Shown here piece by piece: positions 1,346 through 16,868 of a DNA stretch of 64,000 bases. How positions within the stretch are numbered: position 1 is the stretch's first letter; every line of letters begins with the position of its first letter. A program made the position numbers and the translations under genes. Source of the DNA: a virus (lineage: Duplodnaviria; Caudoviricetes). The stretch lies in IMG/VR virus record IMGVR_UViG_3300020577_011395, positions 32,001-96,000 of that record; one strand, given 5' to 3'. Below the pieces are notes generated by a model. It was given only the letters and a program-made list of their open reading frames with translations, made no database searches and had not been told where the DNA came from.

Positions 1346-1867
1346 ATGAGAACCCTAATCCTAAATCAAAGCTATGAAGCAACTGGTACTATCGGCTGGC
1401 AGAAGGCTGTTGCATATGTATTTCTTAAGAAAGCAATAGTTCTAGAAGAATACGACCGTGAAATTCGTTCAATGCGCTTTTCTATGAAAGTGCCTTCTGT
1501 TATTGTTCTTAAGTCGCATAAAGTTCACAAGCCAAAAGCCGTTCGTTATTCTAGAAAAAATGTTTGGCTTCGCGATGAAGGCAAGTGCCAATATTGCAAC
1601 AAAGATGTTAAACTTGCTGACTTTACTATTGACCACGTTCACCCAAAAACAAACGGTGGCAAGACTATTTGGGAAAATGTTGTTACCTCATGTTATAAAT
1701 GTAATCAAACAAAGGCAGAAAAAACTGTTCATGAGGCTGGTTTGAAACTAAAAAAAGTTCCTAAAAAACCAGCTCATTTGCCTCTGATATCTGAGGTTTC
1801 TGGTTTTTATGATGAAAATTATACTCATCCAACTTGGAGCTTTTGGCTTGGCAGGAAAACACCTTAA
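1346..1867 (+). CDS. HNH endonuclease (McrA-like)
   Basis: TLILNQSYE N-terminus; RD..CQYC, TIDHVHP..GG...WENVVTSC..CN..K. Confidence 0.9.
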   Translation: MRTLILNQSYEATGTIGWQKAVAYVFLKKAIVLEEYDREIRSMRFSMKVPSVIVLKSHKVHKPKAVRYSRKNVWLRDEGKCQYCNKDVKLADFTIDHVHPKTNGGKTIWENVVTSCYKCNQTKAEKTVHEAGLKLKKVPKKPAHLPLISEVSGFYDENYTHPTWSFWLGRKTP

Positions 1868-2454
1868 TGAAGGCCCTAGTAATAGATACAGAAACAACGG
1901 GCTTAGATATAACAATTCATGAGATAATTGACATTGCTTTTATAGAAGCAACTCTCAACTTGGTTGGAGAATATAAAATAGTTGATCAATACTCTGTTAA
2001 AATTAAGCCTATGAACCTGCATTCTGCGGATAAATATGCATTAAAAATTAATGGCTATAATGACTATGATTGGAAAAACTCTCGCCCAATCACCGAGATT
2101 CTAGATATGCTCAAAGCAAAGATAGAGTCGGTAGAAGTTTTAGTCGGGCAGAATTTAATATTTGATATGAGATTTATTAAGCAATCTTTTATAAATCATG
2201 GTAAAATACCACCTATATTTCCAAAATATATTGATACAAAACGTATGGCAATGCCACTTGTTAAGAGTGGGGTTCTAAAGGCTTCAAATATGGATGTTCT
2301 TTGTGAGCACTATAAAATTTCTTATAGTGGTAAAGCACACACAGCTTTGGCAGATTGTGAGAGAACTTTAAAAGCTTGGAAGTGTCTATTAAACGATAGT
2401 GTAGAAATGCCGTTTTATACTTATGAGAAAAACTATGACCCATACAAAGCTTAA
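1867..2454 (+). CDS. DEDDh 3'-5' exonuclease (DnaQ/RNase T family)
   Basis: IDTETTGL, GQNLIFD, IDT, HTALAD motifs. Confidence 0.9.
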   Translation: MKALVIDTETTGLDITIHEIIDIAFIEATLNLVGEYKIVDQYSVKIKPMNLHSADKYALKINGYNDYDWKNSRPITEILDMLKAKIESVEVLVGQNLIFDMRFIKQSFINHGKIPPIFPKYIDTKRMAMPLVKSGVLKASNMDVLCEHYKISYSGKAHTALADCERTLKAWKCLLNDSVEMPFYTYEKNYDPYKA

Positions 2455-8027: not shown

Positions 8028-8102
8028 GCGGGCATGATGTAATTGGCAACATTCCAGACTTCCAATCTGGCCTTACCAGATCATTGCTGGTTGTCCGCTC
8101 CA
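8028..8102 (+). tRNA. tRNA-Gly(TCC), atypical T-loop
   Basis: cloverleaf; CCAGA-CTTCCAA-TCTGG; T-loop ATCATTG; CCA end. Confidence 0.85.
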
Positions 8103-8125
8103 CCTTCAAAAGAAAAGAGATAAAA

Positions 8126-8548
8126 ATGACTGTAAAAAAGAATACTAAACCTAAAGTTGTAATTCCAAAGATTAGTCAAGGCGATATGGTATATTTTGCT
8201 GAGAATTCTCATAGTCTTCAAACAGGTATGAAGCCAAACCACCTGTATGAAGTTGCTGGGGTAGACAAAGATGCTCGCACTGTTTTTATTGACCTAGACG
8301 GGAATAATAAACTAGCTCAAGTAGATATTATGGATTGTTTAGTACAAGATGTAGATAAAGACTTTGACCGTGGATACAAGCTTGGAAAAAAAATCGCTGA
8401 TCGCATGAAATGCGTTCTTCGAGAAGAATTAAAAAATGAAGCTGTTTATGGAGAAAATTTCTTACACGGATTCCAAGAATATGTAAATTATAATTCTGAG
8501 TTCGAAGATATTATAGAGAATAATCAAAAATTAGTTGAATACTGGTAA
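8126..8548 (+). CDS. hypothetical protein
   Basis: ATG at 8126, downstream of the tRNA. Confidence 0.7.
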   Translation: MTVKKNTKPKVVIPKISQGDMVYFAENSHSLQTGMKPNHLYEVAGVDKDARTVFIDLDGNNKLAQVDIMDCLVQDVDKDFDRGYKLGKKIADRMKCVLREELKNEAVYGENFLHGFQEYVNYNSEFEDIIENNQKLVEYW

Positions 8549-8562
8549 TATAAAGTAATTAT

Positions 8563-8639
8563 CCGGGTGTAGCTCAGTCGCGAAGAGCATCTGATTTGGG
8601 ATCAGAAGGCCGCAGGTTCGATTCCTGTCACCCGGACCA
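8563..8639 (+). tRNA. tRNA-Pro(TGG)
   Basis: cloverleaf; TTTGGGA loop; CCA end. Confidence 0.93.
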
Positions 8640-8658
8640 ACCTTCTGAGAAGGTATTA

Positions 8659-9279
8659 ATGAAGTTAAGCGAAATCTCGATAGAAGAACTTTCTAAAATT
8701 ACTAAAGAAAGTTCTTCGTATGCTGAAGTCTTCCGACGTTTGGGAAGAAAGACCCATAGTGGCATGGGCCTAAAATATTTAAAGATAAAGTTAGAAGAAA
8801 ATAATATAGATGTTGGACATTTTAAAAGAGTTATAAAGCCAAATTCTATACCTAGATTAACAGCAGAAACAATTTTTCAAGATAACTATAAAATAAGATG
8901 TACCGCAAAAAAATTAAGAAAAACTCTTTTAAGTGTTGGCGTTGAACATAAATGTGCTGTATGTTCATTAACAACTTGGCAAAATAATAAAATTGTTTTA
9001 GAAATAGATCATATAGATGGCAATCCGCTAAACAACAAGATAGAAAATTTAAGATTTATATGTCCCAACTGCCACTCGCAAACGAATAATTATGGTTCTA
9101 AAAATATGAAAAAACAAACCAAGAAAGTTTATATAAAGCGCCAACGAAAAACAAAAATAAATTGGCCTTCAAAAGAAAAGCTACAAGAACTTCTAGACAA
9201 GAATTCTTTTGAAGAAGCTGCAAGATTTCTTGGTGTATCATCAAATGCAATTAGAAAAAGACTAAAAAAGGAGTATTAG
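8659..9279 (+). CDS. HNH homing endonuclease with HTH domain
   Basis: C..C, LEIDHIDG...NN..ENLRFICPNCHSQT; C-terminal AARFLGVSSNAIRKRL; stop lies inside tRNA-Asp. Confidence 0.92.
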   Translation: MKLSEISIEELSKITKESSSYAEVFRRLGRKTHSGMGLKYLKIKLEENNIDVGHFKRVIKPNSIPRLTAETIFQDNYKIRCTAKKLRKTLLSVGVEHKCAVCSLTTWQNNKIVLEIDHIDGNPLNNKIENLRFICPNCHSQTNNYGSKNMKKQTKKVYIKRQRKTKINWPSKEKLQELLDKNSFEEAARFLGVSSNAIRKRLKKEY

Positions 9280-9343
9280 GTTAATGGTAAACCGGGGAGC
9301 TGTCGACTCTCAAAAAAGGGTTCAATTCCCTTATACTCCGCCA
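9270..9343 (+). tRNA. tRNA-Asp(GTC)
   Basis: GGAGTAT/ATACTCC acceptor stem; CTGTCGA loop; GCCA end. Confidence 0.92.
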
Positions 9344-9366
9344 TTTTCTTTAAAAGGATTTATAAA

Positions 9367-9567
9367 ATGTCTCTACTAAAGAATAGAGTAAGCGGAAAAG
9401 TAAAGTTTTTATTCTACCAAGCTGGTCAGCTATGGTATGAGTGTGAAGATAGTTACAGATTTTCAGTAGATGTTCCCGGAGATACTGGAACAGGTAGATT
9501 TCTTGTCGAAGATAAGGGTCTATATTTTATGAGATATATTAGAAAGTCAATGAATTTAGAGGAGTAA
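9367..9567 (+). CDS. hypothetical phage protein
   Basis: AAGGA RBS; ORF track. Confidence 0.7.
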   Translation: MSLLKNRVSGKVKFLFYQAGQLWYECEDSYRFSVDVPGDTGTGRFLVEDKGLYFMRYIRKSMNLEE

Positions 9568-9571
9568 AATA

Positions 9572-9841
9572 ATGTCTGAAAATCTATATAAACAATGTGT
9601 ACTAGTAAAATCAGTTGGAGAATCAAAAATCTTTGATACTTCTTGGATTCCTCAAAAATTCGCTAAGCAAGGCAAACAATTAAAAATTAAGAATTCTCAT
9701 GGTATCTGGGAAGATGGTTGGACTGTAGAATCAGCAGGAACAAATGCACTAGAGTTCGTTGCTCTACAGAGACAAGAAGATTCTCAGAGATATCTAGCTC
9801 ATAAAGTAGCAATTAAGGACGATAGAAGTTTAAGTAAGTAA
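9572..9841 (+). CDS. hypothetical phage protein
   Basis: GAGGAG RBS; QC.L..., SWIP..FA..GK motif. Confidence 0.7.
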   Translation: MSENLYKQCVLVKSVGESKIFDTSWIPQKFAKQGKQLKIKNSHGIWEDGWTVESAGTNALEFVALQRQEDSQRYLAHKVAIKDDRSLSK

Positions 9842-9852
9842 AAATAGAATAC

Positions 9853-9945
9853 GGAAGGTTGGCCGAGTCTGGTTTAAGGCGACAGTCTTGAAAACTGTAG
9901 AACCTCAAAAGGGTTCCGTGAGTTCAAATCCCACACCTTCCTCCA
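9853..9945 (+). tRNA. tRNA-Ser(TGA)
   Basis: long variable arm; CTTGAAA loop; CCA end. Confidence 0.93.
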
Positions 9946-9948
9946 ATT

Positions 9949-10023
9949 GGGTCGATAGTGAAATGGCTATCACAGCAGTCTCCAAAACTGCCTTTCTAGG
10001 TTCGAGTCCTAGTCGGCCCGCCA
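9949..10023 (+). tRNA. tRNA-Trp(CCA)
   Basis: CTCCAAA loop; GCCA end. Confidence 0.93.
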
Positions 10024-10032
10024 CAATAAGAT

Positions 10033-10067
10033 GCCCCTTGACAGACGGACGGGGCCATGCTAGAGTA
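10033..10067 (+). promoter_or_regulatory. sigma70-type promoter, repeated element copy 2
   Basis: identical to 7954-7988. Confidence 0.85.
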
Positions 10068-10081
10068 AGAAAATAAAGTAC

Positions 10082-10120
10082 GGGGAAGCGGCAAAGTTGG
10101 AGAGTTGGAGTGGACTATAA
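10082..10120 (+). pseudogene. 5' half of a tRNA-Tyr-like gene, broken at the anticodon loop
   Basis: GGGGAAG acceptor strand, D-arm, GTGGA-CTATAA; no 3' half seen; immediately downstream of a promoter. Confidence 0.65.
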
Positions 10121-10158
10121 TAAATTTAACCTTTCAATTTTTCAAAACTATATATAGT

Positions 10159-10680
10159 ATGAACACTATAAAATGTAAAAGTTGTCAAGAATATTTTGAA
10201 GTTACTGCCAATACTAAAAGAAAAATTTTTTGTAATAGAAAGTGTTCTGCTCAATATAATAATAAGCGTAGAATAGTTTCTGAATCTACAAGACTAAAAT
10301 ATAGTGAAAATCTCAAAAATAGAATTAAAGTGAATGGCCCACTAACTTCCGGGGAAACGGCTATAAAATATGGCTCGGATAGTCAAAAAGGCAAGCATAA
10401 TAAAGAAATAAAATCAATTTATGAATGTTCCTCTCGTACTAGAGAAAAAATAATTAAACGCTTAAAAATGGGTTGTTCTAGGTGTGGTTGGTCTGAAGGT
10501 AATGGCGACATACATCATATAAATGGAAGAAAAATAGAAGACGCTAATAATATGTCAAATCTTTGTTATTTGTGCCCTAATTGTCATAGATTATGTCACG
10601 AAGGCAAAATATTAAAAGAATCTTTAATTCCTTTATCAAAAACAATACCTGAAAACTGGAAAGAATATTATTATGGTTGA
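10159..10680 (+). CDS. HNH endonuclease with N-terminal Zn-finger
   Basis: C..C...FC...C; CSRCGW, DIHHING, N..SNLCYLCPNCHRLCH; stop lies inside tRNA-Tyr. Confidence 0.9.
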   Translation: MNTIKCKSCQEYFEVTANTKRKIFCNRKCSAQYNNKRRIVSESTRLKYSENLKNRIKVNGPLTSGETAIKYGSDSQKGKHNKEIKSIYECSSRTREKIIKRLKMGCSRCGWSEGNGDIHHINGRKIEDANNMSNLCYLCPNCHRLCHEGKILKESLIPLSKTIPENWKEYYYG

Positions 10681-10766
10681 GTTCCCGTAGCGGCGAACGG
10701 AGCAAGCTGTAACCTTGCCACCCAAAGAGGTAAACACCGTAGGTTCAATTCCTACCTCAACCACCA
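10675..10766 (+). tRNA. tRNA-Tyr(GTA)
   Basis: GGTTGAG/CTCAACC acceptor stem; CTGTAAC loop; long variable arm; CCA end. Confidence 0.92.
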
Positions 10767-10774
10767 ATTTTTAT

Positions 10775-10849
10775 GGCCCTATAGTATAACGTATATTACA
10801 CTTGGCTACGAACTAAGAAATCAAGGTTAAATTCCTTGTAGGGCTACCA
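10775..10849 (+). tRNA. tRNA-Arg(ACG)
   Basis: CTACGAA loop; CCA end; U19/A56 variant. Confidence 0.88.
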
Positions 10850-10976
10850 AGAAAAGAGTTTCTTAAATGAAAAAAGAAATGAAAAAAGAAAAGAAAAATT
10901 AAATTTAGTTTTTGAAAAGATAAATGATTATAACCTAGCCGAACTAGAACTGGCAGTTAAAAAAGCAAAAGAAGCT

Positions 10977-11264
10977 ATGCAAAATGGTTCTTGGACAAAT
11001 ATAAAATTATCTTATGATACTACTGATGAGTATGACGACGAATGTGGCGAGTATATAGAAGACGTTGAAATACATTTATTTGGAAGTCGTTTAGAAACAG
11101 ATAAAGAATTTGAAGATAGATTAGTACAAGAAGCAGAAAACGAAAGACTTCGTAAAGAATATCTTCTTAAAGAAAAAGAAAGGCTAAAACAAGTAGAACT
11201 TAAAAAAGTAGAAGAACGAAATGAGCTACAAGAATATAAGCGCCTTAAAGCTAAATATGGATAA
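10977..11264 (+). CDS. hypothetical acidic/coiled-coil protein
   Basis: ORF track; frame stays open upstream to 10842. Confidence 0.65.
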   Translation: MQNGSWTNIKLSYDTTDEYDDECGEYIEDVEIHLFGSRLETDKEFEDRLVQEAENERLRKEYLLKEKERLKQVELKKVEERNELQEYKRLKAKYG

Positions 11265-11271
11265 GATATAT

Positions 11272-11343
11272 GCGGATGCGATTTTGGAACAGTCTAGGTT
11301 GCCAACTTGGACAAAATGGGTTCGATCCCCATCGTCCGCGCCA
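11272..11343 (+). tRNA. tRNA-Gly(GCC), reduced D-arm
   Basis: GCGGATG/CGTCCGC acceptor stem; TTGCCAA loop; 72 nt. Confidence 0.8.
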
Positions 11344-11363
11344 ATTTTGAAAGAAAGATGAAT

Positions 11364-11449
11364 GGTCCTCTGGTGGAATTTGGTAGACACACTAGGTTTA
11401 GACCCTAACGCCTTCGGGCATCACGGTTCGAGTCCGTGGGGGATCACCA
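11364..11449 (+). tRNA. tRNA-Leu(TAG)
   Basis: TTTAGAC loop; variable arm with TTCG loop; CCA end. Confidence 0.92.
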
Positions 11450-11454
11450 ATAAT

Positions 11455-11530
11455 GCTGCTTGAGCTAGTATGGTTATAGCACCAGTCTGAAGAACTGGCA
11501 AACTTGGTTCAATTCCAAGAGGCAGCACCA
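11455..11530 (+). tRNA. tRNA-Phe(GAA)
   Basis: CTGAAGA loop; CCA end. Confidence 0.92.
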
Positions 11531-11653
11531 ACAACTGAAAAGAAGTATGCTAACATTGAGGTGCAGAATGGGTCTGCTAACTCACAATAAGAGTCGAGAA
11601 GTTAGCAGGTGCTCCACCCTTTCTTATGGGAGATTTCTAATTCTGAGGTTAAA

Positions 11654-11812
11654 ATGTCAGAAATACTAAAGAAATATTTAGATCTTGACATTGAAGTTGA
11701 TCTTTTATTAAGACACGGATTTGAAGAAGAAGCCAATAAAGTGCTTGACAAGCAGGACGAGCTGTGGTACAAACTGTCCGAAGATGAGCACAACTGGCTG
11801 GATAAGAGATAA
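11654..11812 (+). CDS. small hypothetical protein
   Basis: GAGG RBS before ATG at 11654. Confidence 0.6.
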   Translation: MSEILKKYLDLDIEVDLLLRHGFEEEANKVLDKQDELWYKLSEDEHNWLDKR

Positions 11813-11974
11813 GCCATCATAGAATTTGGTTCAAAAATTTATTAAACCCTATCTTTAGAAAGATTCAATTTTGGACAGATAGACCTTACGTTATCTATTC
11901 AATCTTTGATGAGGAACTGAATAAAGTTGTTGGTTATGGCTTCGGAAGAGTAAAATATTACAAATAAAATATAT

Positions 11975-12049
11975 GGGCTGATAGTGATAGTGGTAGCACG
12001 CTGCGTTTGCACCGCAGAGGTTGGGGTTCAATTCCCCATCGGTCCACCA
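11975..12049 (+). tRNA. tRNA-Ala(TGC)
   Basis: G3:U70 pair; TTTGCAC loop; CCA end. Confidence 0.93.
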
Positions 12050-12057
12050 AAGAATGT

Positions 12058-12136
12058 TTGGAAGAAGCAATTGTTGGTTTATTGCAGCTAGCTGTTAACT
12101 AGCCGTTCGCTGGTTCGATTCCAGCCTTCCAAGCCA
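12058..12136 (+). tRNA. tRNA-Asn(GTT)
   Basis: CTGTTAA loop; GCCA end. Confidence 0.92.
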
Positions 12137-12155
12137 ATTTTTAGAAAGGTAATAA

Positions 12156-12356
12156 ATGTATAATATTGGTGATTTAATTGTAATTAAAGATAAATATCGA
12201 CCAGATTACAATGTAATATATGTTTTAATAAAGTGCTTAAATGCAAACATTAATACTTGGGTCTGTTATGATATTGCAAAGCAGATTTCGCCAGAAATAA
12301 CGCTTTCAACCATAGGATACGGTTTTCTTGTTGAAAGGATATGGAATCGTGTATAA
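12156..12356 (+). CDS. small hypothetical protein (SH3/KOW-like)
   Basis: MYNIGDLIVI; AAGG RBS. Confidence 0.6.
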   Translation: MYNIGDLIVIKDKYRPDYNVIYVLIKCLNANINTWVCYDIAKQISPEITLSTIGYGFLVERIWNRV

Positions 12357-12534
12357 ACCAGGTGATATGCTTTGTTATCAGTTTAATCCACCAACTGAAT
12401 TAAAATTTTATTATGTTCTATTAGAACCAAAAAAAGGAAATTCTGGTATTTGGATCGCTTGGGATGTTAAATATGCAAAGAAAACCCAGATTGGCACTAA
12501 AACGTCAAACAGAACAATAACAAAGGTAGAGTAA
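12328..12534 (+). CDS. small hypothetical protein, similar in pattern to the previous ORF
   Basis: YKPGDML...YVLL...W..WD; start uncertain. Confidence 0.55.
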   Translation: MLKGYGIVYKPGDMLCYQFNPPTELKFYYVLLEPKKGNSGIWIAWDVKYAKKTQIGTKTSNRTITKVE

Positions 12535-12541
12535 AAAATAT

Positions 12542-12616
12542 GGCTCTTTAGTAGAATGGTTATAACGTTTGGCTTACATCCAAAAAAAGGGGGTTCAATT
12601 CCCTCAAGAGCTACCA
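12542..12616 (+). tRNA. tRNA-Val(TAC)
   Basis: CTTACAT loop; CCA end. Confidence 0.9.
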
Positions 12617-12631
12617 AATTGGAGTACTAAA

Positions 12632-12838
12632 ATGTATAAAGAAAACCTACCAAAACTATGTTGTAAGAACGTTGGTGGCCATAGTGTTAAATGGTGCGGA
12701 CAAGAAGCAACAGTTTGGTATAAACACTACGGCACAGAAGATATTTGTTCTTATTGTGAGCAACACGATTACGAATGTGGTGAAAAAGTTAATATCGACC
12801 CCTTGGCCGAGAGTCTAGGCATTAGTCTGCAAAACTAA
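12632..12838 (+). CDS. small Cys/His-rich protein overlapping tRNA-Cys
   Basis: GGAG RBS; CC..WC..C.YC..H. Confidence 0.55.
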   Translation: MYKENLPKLCCKNVGGHSVKWCGQEATVWYKHYGTEDICSYCEQHDYECGEKVNIDPLAESLGISLQN

Positions 12839-12870
12839 TCACATTGGTTAAAATCCAATAGGGGTCTCCA
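12797..12870 (+). tRNA. tRNA-Cys(GCA)
   Basis: CTGCAAA loop; U73 discriminator; CCA end. Confidence 0.9.
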
Positions 12871-12886
12871 AGAAGGGAACTAATTT

Positions 12887-13102
12887 ATGCTGATTGAAGC
12901 TGTAACAGAAGGTGCAATTGTCACTACCGCTGTTGATTTAGAAAGTGGCGGTATAACAATTCCAAAAGGAATACAGGGAACCGTGGTGCATATTTATCCA
13001 GGCTCACAGGCTTTTGAAGTTGAATTTCTTCTTGATATTAATACGGAAGATACATATACTCTAGTTGTAACTGTAATGTTTAATCAACTAGAACTTGTGT
13101 GA
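12887..13102 (+). CDS. DUF4926-like protein
   Basis: IPKG..GTVVHIY.....FEVEF motif. Confidence 0.75.
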   Translation: MLIEAVTEGAIVTTAVDLESGGITIPKGIQGTVVHIYPGSQAFEVEFLLDINTEDTYTLVVTVMFNQLELV

Positions 13103-13133
13103 GCGGGAATAAAACAGAAAAATAAAGAGCCGC

Positions 13134-13173
13134 TTGACACGCCGCCGGACCTGTGGTAGAGTAGGTTCATAAG
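13134..13173 (+). promoter_or_regulatory. sigma70-type promoter for the DIP1984-like gene
   Basis: TTGACA-N17-TAGAGT; shares TAGAGTAGGTTCATAAG with 7982-7998. Confidence 0.85.
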
Positions 13174-13206
13174 ATTGAGACACACCAAAGAAAAGGATTG
13201 ATAAAA

Positions 13207-13677
13207 ATGAACACTGTAAAACTTCGCAAGGCCCTCCAAATTAAGAATCGTCTAGCTGGTGAAATTGCTAATCTAACTCGTCGTCTGAATGTAAACAACC
13301 ATCCTGACCAAGATGGTAAGGCTCCTGAGTTTGATATTCGTGCCCTTTTAGCTGAACGTAAAGAACTAGTAAATAAGCTAGTACAGGTAAAGACTGTTAT
13401 TGCAAAGGCTAACGTTGATATCTATGAAAAGATCAATCAACTAGCTGAACTAAAGAGCGAGGTTTCTGTACTATCTCTAATCCCTACTCAAGATGTTCGT
13501 GGCAATAAAAGAGTACTAGTTGAAGGCCGTTATGATTATCTTGATACTGTTACACCTGCGGTTATTAAATCTAAAGAAGTACAAGAAAAAGTTACTGCTC
13601 TTAATTTAGAAATTGAAAGTCTACAAGACGCAATCGACTATCATAATTCGGTCACTGATGTTGTTGTGCCGGAATAA
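13207..13677 (+). CDS. DIP1984-like (septicolysin-like/DUF6847) helical protein
   Basis: KL.KAL..KNRL..EI..L..RL..NN, D...LL.E...L..KL......I..AN, LQD.ID..N..T.V match my recollection of the family pattern. Confidence 0.7.
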   Translation: MNTVKLRKALQIKNRLAGEIANLTRRLNVNNHPDQDGKAPEFDIRALLAERKELVNKLVQVKTVIAKANVDIYEKINQLAELKSEVSVLSLIPTQDVRGNKRVLVEGRYDYLDTVTPAVIKSKEVQEKVTALNLEIESLQDAIDYHNSVTDVVVPE

Positions 13678-13692
13678 GTTAGTCTAAAAGCT

Positions 13693-13939
13693 AGGGAGTA
13701 GCCAACACCTATTCCAACATATTTTAGAATATAATGGTTAAAAATCTTTCGATTCATACTCGAAAACCTCCTTTGCCTGGATGATAAAACACGACAAGGA
13801 TAAGGAACAGCGGATTCGTCCGCCCAAAACTTAAGTCTTTTTCTATTAAGATTGAAAGTTTAAAACCTAAACCACAAACTCTAAAATTCTTCCAACCATT
13901 TTTTTGAAGTGTGCTTGGAGTAGGTGTTGGCGAAACCTT
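13693..13939 (+). ncRNA. unknown ~247-nt structured RNA
   Basis: 17-bp terminal helix 13701-13717/13915-13931, AGTA/GAA motif, TTCG hairpin, 7-nt tandem repeats. Confidence 0.75.
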
Positions 13940-13950
13940 TTATAATTTAT

Positions 13951-14026
13951 GGGATCGTAGCTCAATTGGCAGAGCATTCCGCTTTTAACGGACAGGTTGT
14001 GGGATCGTCACCCACCGATCCCACCA
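13951..14026 (+). tRNA. tRNA-Lys(TTT)
   Basis: CTTTTAA loop; T-loop ATCGTCA; CCA end. Confidence 0.92.
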
Positions 14027-14028
14027 AA

Positions 14029-14103
14029 TGGTTTTTCGAGCATTAACTCGAAACCTTGGACTGCTGGATAACCAAGCCGGTGAAAGACCGAAGAAACCCA
14101 GCC
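14029..14103 (+). ncRNA. unknown multi-stem RNA with possible pseudoknot
   Basis: three hairpins inside a closing helix; loop GCTGG complementary to 3' CCAGC. Confidence 0.55.
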
Positions 14104-14119
14104 TTAATTTTGTTTCAAG

Positions 14120-14198
14120 TTTTTAGAACATAGCTTAACGGAAAAGCATACCTCAAAATAGAGGTGGATTTTGGTTCGAATCCAAATGATTCTAAAAA
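14120..14198 (+). ncRNA. tRNA-like RNA 1 (no CCA, no canonical anticodon loop)
   Basis: D-arm, TTCGAAT T-arm, 6-nt loop AAAATA, extended bulged acceptor-like stem. Confidence 0.7.
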
Positions 14199-14227
14199 GT
14201 TTTTATTGTACTACTTAAAATAAGTAT

Positions 14228-14305
14228 GGCCCATTCATCTACGTTTGGCTAGGATATTGGACTTTCACTCCAACAAAACGGGATCGACACCCGTATGGGC
14301 TACCA
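14228..14305 (+). tRNA. tRNA-Glu(TTC)
   Basis: CTTTCAC loop; T-loop ATCGACA; CCA end. Confidence 0.9.
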
Positions 14306-14307
14306 AT

Positions 14308-14386
14308 TTGTAAGATATCATCCTTGGGGATATTAGGCACCCTTGAAGTGCCTACGGCACAGTTCAAATCTGTGATATACTTACAA
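14308..14386 (+). ncRNA. tRNA-like RNA 2 (no CCA)
   Basis: 12-bp bulged terminal stem; 7-bp stem with CCTTGAA loop; TTCAAAT T-arm. Confidence 0.7.
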
Positions 14387-14391
14387 TAATT

Positions 14392-14470
14392 TTGTAGAGG
14401 TCTTACTAGGGTAGGTATTGCGGTCGCGGAGACAGCAAAAGCTGGTTCAACTCCAGCAGACACTTTACAA
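14392..14470 (+). ncRNA. tRNA-like RNA 3 (no CCA)
   Basis: 12-bp bulged terminal stem; GCTGG-TTCAACT-CCAGC T-arm; irregular anticodon arm. Confidence 0.68.
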
Positions 14471-14479
14471 TAAATTTAT

Positions 14480-14572
14480 GGAAGGTTGGGTGAGTGTCTT
14501 AAACCAGTTGCCTGCTAAGCGACCATGGCCTTTAAAAAGCCATCGTGGGTTAAAATCCCACACCTTCCGCCA
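14480..14572 (+). tRNA. tRNA-Ser(GCT)
   Basis: CTGCTAA loop; long variable arm; GCCA end. Confidence 0.92.
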
Positions 14573-14580
14573 ATATTAAA

Positions 14581-14760
14581 ATGACCTGTGATATCTGTAA
14601 AGAAAAAAAGTTCGTCTACGAAAAAAAAGTCCTTGACGAGCTTATTACTCTGTGCGAAGATTGTGACTGGTCAACAGAAGATATAAAAGAAGCGGATAAG
14701 ATTGGACAAGCTATGAAAGATAAGTTGTCTGAGATTATGAAAGAAATGTTTAAAGACTAA
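14581..14760 (+). CDS. small CxxC-CxxC protein, 59 aa (not in ORF track)
   Basis: MTCDICKEKK...LCEDCDW...MFKD*; fills the gap between two tRNAs. Confidence 0.6.
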   Translation: MTCDICKEKKFVYEKKVLDELITLCEDCDWSTEDIKEADKIGQAMKDKLSEIMKEMFKD

Positions 14761-14771
14761 TTAAAATAAAT

Positions 14772-14847
14772 GCATCAGTAGCTCAACAGGTAGAGCACTT
14801 GTTTTGTAATCAAGCGGTTGTAGGTTCAATTCCTATCTGATGCTCCA
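14772..14847 (+). tRNA. tRNA-Thr(TGT)
   Basis: TTTGTAA loop; CCA end. Confidence 0.92.
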
Positions 14848-14851
14848 ATTT

Positions 14852-14913
14852 TGTTTAGCTATGGAATCTGGCGGGATCAAGCCAATTGACGATCCCAAGC
14901 CCATAGCTAAACA
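14852..14913 (+). ncRNA. unknown hairpin RNA
   Basis: 13-bp perfect stem TGTTTAGCTATGG/CCATAGCTAAACA; inner GGGATC/GATCCC stem. Confidence 0.5.
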
Positions 14914-14920
14914 TCTTTTT

Positions 14921-14995
14921 ACGAGTATAGTGAAATGGTTATCACACTTGTCTGATACACAGGTATTCAAAGTTCAAATCTTTGTACTCGTACCA
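14921..14995 (+). tRNA. tRNA-Ile(GAT)
   Basis: CTGATAC loop; CCA end. Confidence 0.92.
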
Positions 14996-15009
14996 AATTT
15001 ATAAGAAAT

Positions 15010-15087
15010 GGCCCTCTAGCGCAACAGGTAGGAGGCAGCAGACTCAAAATCTGTACAGTGTGGGTTCGAATCCCACGGGGGCCACCA
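15010..15087 (+). tRNA. tRNA-Leu(CAA), short variable arm
   Basis: CTCAAAA loop; 5-nt variable region; CCA end. Confidence 0.88.
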
Positions 15088-15095
15088 AATTTTAT

Positions 15096-15171
15096 ACTCC
15101 CTTAGCGCAGCGGTTAGCGCAGCGAGCTTATATCTCGTTGGTCGCTGGTTCAAATCCAGCAGGGAGTACCA
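15096..15171 (+). tRNA. tRNA-Ile(TAT)
   Basis: GCGAG-CTTATAT-CTCGT; A73; CCA end. Confidence 0.9.
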
Positions 15172-15187
15172 ATTGAAAAGAAAGTTT

Positions 15188-15263
15188 GGGACTTTAGCTC
15201 AGCTGGGAGAGCATTCGACTCTTAATCGACAGGTCGTGAGTTCAAATCTCACAAGTCCTACCA
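15188..15263 (+). tRNA. tRNA-Lys(CTT)
   Basis: CTCTTAA loop; CCA end. Confidence 0.93.
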
Positions 15264-15277
15264 AAATAAAATAGTTC

Positions 15278-15353
15278 GGTCTTGTCATCTAACGGTTTAG
15301 GATATAGCCCTCTCACGGCTAGTATTGGGGTTCGAATCCCCACAGGATCACCA
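15278..15353 (+). tRNA. tRNA-Glu(CTC)
   Basis: CTCTCAC loop; CCA end. Confidence 0.92.
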
Positions 15354-15360
15354 AAATCAT

Positions 15361-15437
15361 GCATCCGTAACTCAACTGGACAGAGTAACGAGCTTCTACC
15401 TCGTAAGCTGTAGGTTCAAATCCTACCGGATGCGCCA
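15361..15437 (+). tRNA. tRNA-Arg(TCT)
   Basis: CTTCTAC loop; GCCA end. Confidence 0.93.
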
Positions 15438-15445
15438 ATTGTAAG

Positions 15446-15574
15446 GTTCGTTTAGCTTAATGACCACCTTAAAAGGTATGAGGATATTCTAGATAATATC
15501 ATATGGATAAAGGTTTATTTTAAAGAGCCTACGAATCGTATCGTAGAGGTCTGGAATGGCAAACCAGAGCGGAC
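15446..15574 (+). ncRNA. possible multi-hairpin RNA
   Basis: closing GTTCGTTT/GAGCGGAC and four short internal hairpins; no ORF in track. Confidence 0.4.
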
Positions 15575-15585
15575 ATCAAATTTAT

Positions 15586-15659
15586 TGGGGAATCATCTAA
15601 CGGCAGGATAACGCTCTCTGAAAGCGTCCATGATGGTTCGAATCCATCTTCCCCAACCA
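15586..15659 (+). tRNA. tRNA-Gln(CTG)
   Basis: CTCTGAA loop; CCA end. Confidence 0.92.
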
Positions 15660-15667
15660 AAGGATTT

Positions 15668-15979
15668 ATGCTAAAGATATTAGCTTTTATATTGTTGTAC
15701 CTTACACCGATTAGTACTGCCGCTCAAAGCACTGCTTCTGTTCATGTTGCAGCGACTATTTCTCCTTCCGTGAATGTTTATTCGGATGAAAATATTATAT
15801 ACTGGATAAGTAATTGCGAAGATGCTAGTGTTAGTGCAGTGATAAACAATGAATTTGTAGCTTTAAATACGCCAGAAAGAATATATACTCTAGAAAATGT
15901 TGAGCTAATGGCATCTGGAGTTAAAGAAGAAGATATATTTAAAGATAACCAAAATTATTTGATGTTAGCAAGAAAATAG
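15668..15979 (+). CDS. secreted hypothetical protein
   Basis: signal-peptide-like N-terminus MLKILAFILLYLTPISTAA. Confidence 0.6.
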   Translation: MLKILAFILLYLTPISTAAQSTASVHVAATISPSVNVYSDENIIYWISNCEDASVSAVINNEFVALNTPERIYTLENVELMASGVKEEDIFKDNQNYLMLARK

Positions 15980-15986
15980 AAAGTAT

Positions 15987-16061
15987 TCCCCTTTCGTCTA
16001 ATTGGCAGGACAGTAGACTTTGAATCTGCTTATCTACGTTCAAATCGTAGAAGGGGAACCA
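15987..16061 (+). tRNA. tRNA-Gln(TTG)
   Basis: CTTTGAA loop; CCA end. Confidence 0.92.
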
Positions 16062-16069
16062 AATTTTAT

Positions 16070-16144
16070 AGCGTGTGGCAGGTTAGATCTGAGCCAGTCT
16101 CATAAGCTGGAAAAACCGGGTGCGATTCCCGCGTAACGCTACCA
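16070..16144 (+). tRNA. tRNA-Met(CAT), structurally atypical
   Basis: CCAGT-CTCATAA-GCTGG; T-loop TGCGATT; imperfect acceptor stem; CCA end. Confidence 0.7.
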
Positions 16145-16169
16145 ATTTTTAAAGAGACTACTTATATAC

Positions 16170-16694
16170 ATGAAGATTAAAATCTTAAAAGAGTCACTTG
16201 AAGAACCAAAAGGTCTAGGAAATAAGCTTGGGTCTGGCGTTCAAGGGATTGTATATAGGCTTGAAAATGGCCAAGTAGCGAAACTGACAAAAAAGAAACA
16301 AGAAGCAGAAATCGCAACTCTCATTTTAAATAAAAAAATATTTCATGAAGCCTTACCAATATTCACATCCGTGAATAAAACAACAGAAAATAAATGGTGG
16401 TTGGTAAGAGAAGATTTACGGGACTTCCCAAAAAACAAAGAATTGGACCGAGTTCTTGGTGACTTCGAGGTGATGACAGTTTACACTGATTGGTCACCAG
16501 CAGTCCAACAAGCACAAAATTCGTTAAATAGTCTAGAGGGTAAAAATCTAGAATATGCTAAAAAAATGTTTTCTCTCTATGAATATGCAAAACAAATAGG
16601 CATGAAGCTTACAGACTCTAGAACAAGCAATTGGGGTTTAAGAGGCGATCAGCCAGTTTTAAGAGATTTTGGCGCAGCAAGAATAAATGTATAA
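16170..16694 (+). CDS. protein-kinase-fold protein
   Basis: LGSGVQGIVY, VAK, D....NWG, DFG motifs. Confidence 0.78.
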   Translation: MKIKILKESLEEPKGLGNKLGSGVQGIVYRLENGQVAKLTKKKQEAEIATLILNKKIFHEALPIFTSVNKTTENKWWLVREDLRDFPKNKELDRVLGDFEVMTVYTDWSPAVQQAQNSLNSLEGKNLEYAKKMFSLYEYAKQIGMKLTDSRTSNWGLRGDQPVLRDFGAARINV

Positions 16695-16704
16695 ATTAAA
16701 ATAT

Positions 16705-16781
16705 GGTGAATGTAGCTTAATTGTTAAAGCACCAGATTGTGAATCTGGCATATGTGGGTTAAAGTCCCATCATTTACCCCA
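16705..16781 (+). tRNA. tRNA-His(GTG)
   Basis: G-1:C73; TTGTGAA loop; CCA end. Confidence 0.92.
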
Positions 16782-16793
16782 ATAAGAAAGTAT

Positions 16794-16868
16794 GCTAGTA
16801 TAGTGAAAAGGTTATCACACTCCTCTCATACGGGATTATTGTCAGTTCGATTCTGACTACTAGTACCA
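16794..16868 (+). tRNA. tRNA-Met(CAT) (elongator or Ile2)
   Basis: CTCATAC loop; CCA end. Confidence 0.88.

Follow-up and report, generated by a model that had tools for sequence, protein, structure and literature searches.

What is a phage doing with genes for RNAs that fold as tRNAs and lie among tRNAs, but which are not built, as encoded, to decode? The question is raised by three elements, here called E1, E2 and E3, in the tRNA array of an uncultured phage, all within one window (the whole 64,000-nt stretch of DNA that was analysed; Table 1). Today the tRNA arrays of phages are seen as weapons in a contest over host tRNAs, and RNAs of the RNAC and RNAD type, found in such arrays, have gone without an assigned function for decades. 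An initial annotation of this DNA had described three 79-nt tRNA mimics here, and the coordinates and features proved to be as it described. The comparisons given below show these to be genuine, heritable, structure-maintained elements that are not decoding tRNAs as encoded. What such elements do is a separate matter, of course, and several answers must be weighed.

The tRNA array and its RNA block

The record that contains the window is estimated by CheckV to be ~40% complete. The PhoH-linked relatives of this phage are also uncultured, and their complete records run to ~190-205 kb. HNH endonuclease genes and small ORFs are scattered through the tRNA array, with HNH genes abutting tRNAs. CCA is encoded in 28 of the 28 tRNAs found by ARAGORN, and in tRNA-Glu(UUC) as well, either right at the called end or no more than a few bases from it.

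E1-E3 sit in a 900-nt stretch without ORFs. The block to which they belong reads, in order, structured RNA, tRNA-Lys(UUU), a 79-nt element called X, E1, tRNA-Glu(UUC), E2, E3 and tRNA-Ser(GCU). A consensus scan finds a single strong promoter-like site upstream of this block (Table 1), and this site would drive the 156-aa ORF, the structured RNA behind it and the RNA block as one transcript. A coding function for the E2/E3 region was considered and rejected. The frame in question, on the minus strand, is a 74-aa ORF at 14239-14463 with 78 codons from stop to stop; it extends into tRNA-Glu and is broken in the related contig L084.

Some of the real tRNAs here have peculiarities of their own. The T loops of tRNA-Lys(UUU) and tRNA-Glu(UUC) are non-canonical (ATCGTCA and ATCGACA). 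Three ARAGORN calls fall under the Rfam gathering score in a whole-window scan, and one of these, the Met-CAU call, has an imperfect acceptor stem and a TACCA just downstream. Where this phage has its large array, relatives have a tmRNA gene, situated a few kb upstream of PhoH; no such gene turned up in the window.

Table 1. Positions of the elements, their neighbours and the features used in comparison. Coordinates are those of the window unless a contig (L number) is named; R1 is the covariance model of E2.
Feature	Position	Strand	Remarks
IMGVR_UViG_3300020577_011395, uncultured phage	window = positions 32,001-96,000		129-kb IMG/VR record; 34% G+C
RNase T-family (DEDDh) exonuclease gene	1834-2454		6 kb upstream of array; Pfam RNase_T, E 2e-23
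tRNA array	8028-16868		28 tRNAs by ARAGORN and tRNA-Glu(UUC) by Rfam = 29
tRNAs under Rfam gathering score	8028-8102 (Gly-UCC); 11272-11343 (Gly-GCC); 16067-16139 (Met-CAU)		ARAGORN
Best upstream promoter-like site	13134-13162	+	TTGACA-17-TAGAGT with TG; consensus scan only
156-aa ORF and ~230-nt structured RNA behind it	13198-13931		conserved in L084, L085
tRNA-Lys(UUU)	13951-14026	+	ARAGORN, Rfam; same order in L084, L096
Element X	14029-14107; L096 347-425		79-nt structured RNA directly after tRNA-Lys
E1, tRNA-like RNA gene	14120-14198	+	fold z -4.2; Rfam tRNA 31.2 bits
tRNA-Glu(UUC)	14228-14305	+	Rfam 40.9 bits; missed by ARAGORN; ends 2 nt before E2
E2, tRNA-like RNA gene	14308-14386	+	fold z -2.9; no Rfam tRNA match at E<=10
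E3, tRNA-like RNA gene, E2 paralog	14392-14470	+	fold z -3.3; R1 30.7 bits, E 3e-8
tRNA-Ser(GCU)	14480-14572	+	ARAGORN, Rfam; begins 9 nt past E3
E1 orthologs	L084 2673-2751; L096 438-525		identical termini; three different anticodon arms
E2 orthologs	L084 2862-2941; L096 636-715		loop CUCUGAA in L084
E3 orthologs	L084 2946-3026; L096 720-801		changes mostly pair-preserving
CCA-less canonical tRNA-Asn(GUU) of relatives	L029 7646-7728; L038 6348-6426; L047 4966-5044
Odd tRNA calls in distant arrays	L087 1181-1262; L092 3230-3327, 13520-13616; L086 251-327
tmRNA gene of relatives	L001 5305-5593		also in L006, L007, L011, L013, L018

Cloverleaves with an altered end

The minimum-energy fold of each element is a cloverleaf (ViennaRNA), and of 200 dinucleotide shuffles 0-1 were equally stable (z scores in Table 1). 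Much of the tRNA body is in order. The T arms have the perfect 5-bp stems and TTCRANT-type loops that had been noticed at the outset (TTCGAAT in E1, TTCAAAT in E2, TTCAACT in E3), and GG is present in all three D loops. The D arm of E2 has 4 bp and a 4-nt loop, UUGG. E3 is compact, its terminal helix, D stem and anticodon arm following one another with zero linker bases.

The anticodon arms had been called abnormal, and each is abnormal in its own way. That of E1 has a 6-nt loop on a 5-bp stem, 16 nt in all. That of E2 presents the loop CCUUGAA on a 7-bp stem, which would be a Gln UUG anticodon with C33. That of E3 has an irregular stem and a 5-nt loop.

The closing helix is the other peculiarity. 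A terminal helix of 11-12 bp with one bulged A on its 3' strand had been reported; the fold has 11 bp and one possible terminal pair in each element, with the lone unpaired A at 14189 (E1), 14379 (E2) and 14462 (E3). Here, comparison with tRNA-Val and tRNA-Met is instructive for E1, where it reveals a normal 7-bp acceptor stem (5' UAGAACA) with an extra A in its 3' strand (UG-A-UUCUA). In E2 and E3, the acceptor stem with its one inserted A has 7 or 8 bp (8 in E3). The "extended" helix is, in other words, an acceptor stem of normal length with an inserted A, to which only four pairs between leader and tail have been added. In E1, the leader UUUU (14120-14123) pairs with the tail AAAA (14195-14198); in E2 and E3, a UUGU leader pairs with an ACAA tail. 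This tail takes the position of ACCA, from which it is 1 base away in E2 and E3 and 2 bases away in E1. Among the real tRNAs, 28 of which were tested, pairing of the leader reaches no more than 2 nt past the acceptor stem.

CCA is missing from all three elements, whereas all 29 real tRNAs have it, at the called end or close by, just as the initial annotation had it. As encoded, E1-E3 cannot be charged or read codons. "Non-chargeable", the word first applied to them, is apt for the genes as encoded, but it goes too far for the RNAs, since the seal is four mostly A-U pairs, ACAA is one base from ACCA, and host enzymes may trim the ends and repair the CCA.

E1 scores above the 29-bit gathering threshold of the Rfam tRNA model RF00005, whereas E2 and E3 go unreported even at E<=10. 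A descriptor scan of the whole genome and 80 related loci (1.29 Mb) recovered E1-E3 as the sole tRNA-spaced elements in which the T loop is canonical and the closing helix reaches 11 bp or more, with one exception, a CCA-less tRNA-Asn of a relative. Canonical tRNA-Asn(GUU) genes without CCA occur in three relatives (Table 1). Their leader and trailer form 3-5 bp with the discriminator bulged, a milder closed end on a real tRNA.

Two lineages with the same end

How the three are related was addressed with covariance models. MAFFT alignments of the three elements conflicted with the structure and were not used; instead, a model was built from E2 alone (R1) and the remaining sequences were aligned to it by Infernal. 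Two further models represent E2 with E3 (R2) and E1 (R3).

E3 heads the R1 ranking (Table 1), followed by a tRNA-Asn and two tRNA-Gln genes at 21-23 bits, with E1 at 14.6. When E2 is compared with E3, 96% of cells are paired, against 29-46% in controls with slid partners, and both sides have changed in 14 of the 27 pairs. Across all four helices, 26 of 27 pairs were retained. The six-sequence E2/E3 set agrees with this picture of covariation. E2 and E3 are diverged paralogs, and they have in common the sequence of the outer helix, the position of the bulge and the UUGU/ACAA ends. Because the outer helix, the bulge and the ACAA tail are shared, the unusual end is older than the split between the two, and the fold was kept afterwards.

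E1 is a lineage apart from E2/E3 with the same three modifications of its end. Apart from E1 itself, R3 matches best (41-44 bits) to tRNA-Val(UAC) and tRNA-Met(CAU) genes carried by related phages. E2 resembles tRNA-Gln in its D arm and its anticodon loop (CCUUGAA, against CUUUGAA and CUCUGAA in real tRNA-Gln genes), and tRNA-Gln(UUG) is the top tRNA match of the E2/E3 model in one distant array. The isotype of origin is ambiguous by simple alignment of the tRNA body with 194 array tRNAs. The pattern is consistent with E1 having arisen from a Val/Met-type tRNA, and E2 and E3 from one ancestor with tRNA-Gln features.

The same elements in two close relatives

Two short Logan contigs, L084 and L096, both from other samples, were reached through proteins encoded next to the elements. 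L084 has a copy of the 156-aa protein that is 94% identical; L096 has a copy of a 59-aa protein that is 93% identical. In these two independent assemblies, E1, E2 and E3 recur in identical order. Divergence from the window in this region is ~9% overall, and in the adjacent 156-aa ORF 10 of 70 four-fold sites have changed.

The termini, the bulged A, the D arms and the T arms of E1 and E2 are nearly unchanged in both relatives. The nucleotides that build the tRNA elbow (G18 and G19; U54, U55 and C56 of the T loop; the G53-C61 pair) and perfect T stems are found in 9 of 9 copies. In L096, the D stem of E1 carries a compensatory change from C-G to U-A. The E3 orthologs have ~7 changes, which for the most part preserve pairing (A-U or G-C to G-U), and the helix gains one pair. 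Selection has acted on the fold of E1-E3. The first reading of this locus had argued against simple decay, and rightly so: the four E2/E3 helices survive 14 double changes, the E1 D stem is compensated and the elements are kept in L084 and L096.

The anticodon arms tell a different story from the real tRNAs of the block, the anticodon loops of which are invariant across strains. The anticodon arm of E1 differs in sequence in every strain (16 nt, 15 nt and ~27 nt), and its loop, of 6 nt in the window, is of 5 nt or unstructured elsewhere. The ~27-nt arm of the L096 E1 folds poorly, and the z score of that whole element is -0.14. A search for a donor or scar of these E1 cassettes by short-word blastn found none. 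The E2 loop has 7 nt in each of the three strains and always shows a Gln anticodon; in L084 this is the exact tRNA-Gln(CUG) loop, with U33 there against C33 in the window, and in both L084 and L096 the anticodon stem carries an extra bulged U.

Comparisons of rate are weak here, because the real tRNAs of the same block differ between strains by anything from 1% to >15%. The tRNA-Lys allele is strongly different among all three strains.

How far the family extends

Outside these genomes, the trail ends quickly. Against GenBank phages, blastn matched the adjoining tRNA-Lys and tRNA-Ser only, with no E1-E3 homolog. A pattern for E2/E3 gave 60 matches in metagenome contigs, none of which folds like E2/E3 by R2, and a pattern for E1 gave none in IMG/VR or the metagenome contigs. 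In IMG/VR, the E2/E3 pattern had a single match, in an unrelated 2.9-kb record (L081); this was judged to be chance. A descriptor of a T arm with a closing helix of at least 10 bp returned only ordinary tRNAs and chance matches from 80 PhoH-linked IMG/VR loci and from distant arrays, meaning those of phages that share the neighbouring 156-aa protein. Over the 80 loci, 50 whole related records and the distant arrays, R2 gave weak matches, at or below the level of ordinary tRNAs. Over the 50 records, R3 found canonical tRNAs only (Val, Met, Thr, Gln and Leu).

The close relatives L084 and L096 carry E1-E3; in the 50 farther records, neither R2 nor R3 found them. The family, seen only in three very close genomes, appears to be confined to a narrow phage lineage. 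To speak of a "new ncRNA class", as the initial annotation had, is too strong for a family known from three near-identical genomes.

The distant arrays have oddities of their own. ARAGORN calls four-base anticodons in them, "tRNA-Lys/Asn" genes of 90-98 nt and one tRNA with a 10-nt anticodon loop (examples in Table 1). In arrays of this group, unusual tRNA-like genes are frequent.

A proposed mimic of the tRNA body

What would keep the body of a tRNA while disabling both of its working ends? The explanation that serves best as a whole, and which is favoured here only tentatively, is that E1-E3 are maintained non-decoding tRNA mimics. They would be transcribed with the tRNA array and freed by the cuts that mature their neighbours. 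What makes the L shape is still there in each of them: all four helices, the T loop and the GG in the D loop. Their acceptor end is disabled in three ways, by the inserted A, by the replacement of ACCA with AAAA or ACAA, and by the pairing of this tail to a complementary 4-nt leader. The anticodon arm is abnormal and changes faster than any other part.

A fixed body, a sealed end and a variable anticodon arm fit a mimic that would engage a reader of the tRNA body and itself take no part in charging or translation. The mode of action would most likely be molecular mimicry, in which the RNA occupies such a protein or RNP. Candidate partners are a host tRNA-directed defence nuclease, or a factor that processes or senses tRNA. 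Against the mimic reading, the seal consists of only four weak pairs, and conservation across three very close genomes could mostly reflect their short divergence. Genes for Ro60, RNA ligase, RtcB, a CCA-adding enzyme and RNase III were sought in the 129-kb fragment and none was found, which is weak evidence from ~40% of a genome.

The version of mimicry in which the elements would be decoys for host defence, the role first proposed for them, has only circumstantial support. The loop of E2 imitates that of tRNA-Gln, and E2 lies near tRNA-Lys(UUU) and tRNA-Glu(UUC). These isoacceptors are classic targets of anticodon nucleases. Nucleases and tRNAs are engaged in an arms race in phages, with arrays shaped by anticodon nucleases (PMC10264068, PMC13056530). 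Conversely, the anticodon arms of E1 and E3 resemble those of no tRNA, and the arm of E1 seems dispensable. A decoy for an anticodon nuclease should keep a faithful anticodon arm; the poor arm of the L096 E1 and the bulged U in the E2 stem therefore count against it. A still more specific proposal, and a distinctly speculative one, is a "capped" mimic, invented at least twice in this array, once in E1 and once in the ancestor of E2 and E3. Its acceptor end would be closed on purpose, so as to hold a full tRNA body back from charging and translation, and its anticodon arm would be a swappable cassette serving to bait or block tRNA-directed host immunity or some other tRNA reader.

Precursors, relics and other readings

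The elements might instead be precursors of working or semi-working tRNAs that merely look sealed. RNase P or a double-strand nuclease would cut the leader, exonucleases would trim the AA of the tail, and the CCA-adding enzyme of the host would restore CCA. E2 would then be an odd tRNA-Gln, with E1 and E3 as tRNA-like molecules having a normal 3' end. In favour of this, ACAA is one base short of ACCA, the seal is of four mostly A-U pairs, and the CCA-less canonical tRNA-Asn of L029, L038 and L047, with some leader-trailer pairing, offers a parallel. E1 passes the Rfam tRNA threshold, and the Gln anticodon of E2 is seen in a 7-nt loop in 3 of 3 strains. The difficulty comes at the other end of the molecule. 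E1 (with loops of 5-6 nt or an unstructured 27-nt arm) and E3 (with a 5-nt loop) have no presentable anticodon, and E2 has C33 in the window and, in L084 and L096, a bulge in its anticodon stem. Further, the bulged A of the acceptor stem would persist in the mature RNA, and every anticodon that E1-E3 could supply is already covered by canonical, CCA-bearing tRNAs. These points make the precursor reading improbable; if it is true that E1-E3 are trimmed and CCA-repaired, an unusual route of maturation will have been documented.

The opposite view is that they do nothing. In an array with heavy traffic of homing endonucleases, where HNH genes abut tRNAs, tRNA copies could have been disabled and then tolerated as harmless. 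The damage would consist of an acceptor-stem indel, the loss of CCA and scarring of the anticodon arm, and such lesions resemble classic inactivating events. With leaders that are U-rich, two C-to-A changes suffice for the extra pairs of E1. The narrow distribution agrees with this, as do the E1 anticodon arm, wholly different in each strain and poorly folded in L096, and the ~9% differences of E3, near the regional rate. Relics, however, would not be expected to pair so faithfully. E2 and E3 share the lesions, yet 26 of 27 pairs were kept through 14 double changes; since the bulged A and the UUGU/ACAA ends are common to both, these "defects" predate a long divergence in which structure was preserved. 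The compensatory change in the E1 D stem and the perfection of the helices in nearly all nine copies point the same way. A bulged A together with a leader complementary to a CCA-less tail recurs in two lineages, and the cassettes of E1 have left neither donor nor scar that short-word blastn could find. Functionless relics are, on this evidence, also improbable, about as much so as precursors.

Less probable again are cis-acting modules for processing or stability, which would attract RNase P or RNase Z to a polycistronic transcript, or shield it from exonucleases, and so shape it. Selection seems to rest on the "top half" of acceptor, T and D arms that these enzymes read, with the anticodon arm left free, and a precedent exists in the t-elements of plant mitochondria (PMC1920247). 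Against such a role, genuine tRNAs only 2-9 nt away already provide processing sites, and there is no mRNA end to define at E1-E3. A paired leader is, moreover, expected to hinder RNase P rather than help it.

That the elements are Y RNA-type partners of the Ro60 (Rsr) protein is very improbable: as tRNA mimics whose terminal helix is bulged they resemble such partners, but an Rfam scan up to E=10 reports neither YrlA nor any Y RNA, the TROVE domain (PF05731), matched in control genomes, was not found in the ~40% complete 129-kb record, and their ends on the acceptor side and their 3'-strand A bulge are presumably unlike the Ro-binding stem. The initial annotation had likewise set them apart from YrlA-type Y RNAs, and the Rfam result and the lack of a Ro60 gene in the fragment bear this out.

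Relation to known systems

Maintained non-decoding mimics would not be wholly without company; E1-E3 fall within a loosely known kind, the non-tRNA RNAs of phage tRNA clusters. With canonical tRNAs (RF00005), they share the cloverleaf, a TTCRANY-type T loop with G53-C61, the GG of the D loop and a place in a tRNA array. They depart from canonical tRNAs in the inserted acceptor A, the missing CCA and the paired leader and tail. They depart also from the canonical anticodon arm with its 5-bp stem, 7-nt loop and U33, in that the loops of E1 and E3 have 5-6 nt and E2 has a 7-bp stem and C33.

By position, the closest analogues are RNAC and RNAD of phage T4, which are also non-tRNA small RNAs inside a phage tRNA cluster. 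These are longer (~120-140 nt) than E1-E3 and are not 79-nt cloverleaves. They are small stable RNAs of the tRNA region, made with the tRNAs, with a function still unknown (PMC3014915). Northern blotting has been used to check their assignment to the late phase (PMC9697503).

Other RNAs come close by structure. The YrlA Y RNAs are non-decoding and mimic the tRNA elbow, and their 5' and 3' ends join in a closing helix (PMC4201824). In YrlA, however, the closing stem replaces the anticodon arm and binds Ro60 (PMC4201824), whereas E1-E3 are closed by the acceptor stem, which runs on into the T stem. Allo-tRNAs, found in bacteria and their phages, have 8/4 or 9/3 acceptor branches, in which a lengthened acceptor stem and a shortened T stem add up to a 12-bp acceptor/T branch (PMC5389517). 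They share with E1-E3 a longer acceptor stem, but they keep CCA function and an anticodon; the acceptor/T branch of E1-E3 is 16-17 bp, bulged, with a T stem of the full 5 bp, against 12 bp in the allo-tRNAs. The t-elements are non-decoding, tRNA-like structures kept as substrates of tRNA-processing enzymes, and resemble E1-E3 in this. They define mRNA ends (PMC1920247), whereas E1-E3 lie between tRNAs and small RNAs, at distances of 2-29 nt, with their leaders paired.

The use of an array as a tool of counter-defence, with fast change in the anticodon arm, is the likeness to two further cases. A tRNA of phage T5 reportedly neutralises PARIS. Phage tRNAs with altered anticodon loops evade anticodon nucleases (PMC10264068). 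Both, however, are functional, chargeable tRNAs that replace cleaved host tRNAs, whereas E1-E3 cannot decode as encoded.

Two lineages with the same three changes at the acceptor end, and many compensatory changes besides, make a testable case for non-decoding, tRNA-shaped RNAs. All three are short, with sharp limits. E1 is, in addition, a natural series in which anticodon arms have been swapped on an unchanged body, and this provides ready variants for assays of binding and protection.

Element X and the 156-aa protein

The RNA between tRNA-Lys and E1 merits a description of its own. Its first hairpin is fully compensated between the window and L096 (UUUCGAG/CUCGAAA against GUAGAAG/CUUCUAC). 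X is absent from L084, where E1 comes almost directly after tRNA-Lys. The motif GCUGGAU(AA) occurs both in the central loop of X (window 14063-14071; L096 382) and in the anticodon arm of E1 (L084 2705; L096 468). The 7-mer GCUGGAU is found 14 times per strand in 129 kb, and the probability of coincidence, calculated post hoc, is roughly 0.003-0.006. In X, the same motif can alternatively pair with CCAGC near the 3' end.

An exonuclease gene of the RNase T family lies well upstream of the array (Table 1). Nearer to the block, the 156-aa protein has homologs (44-49% identity) inside huge arrays, with 37-40 tRNAs in 20 kb (L087, L092-L094). Other homologs adjoin an RNA ligase, a tRNA-ligase CPD-like protein and an NAPRTase (L089-L091). 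These neighbourhoods suggest that the 156-aa protein is linked with tRNA biology.
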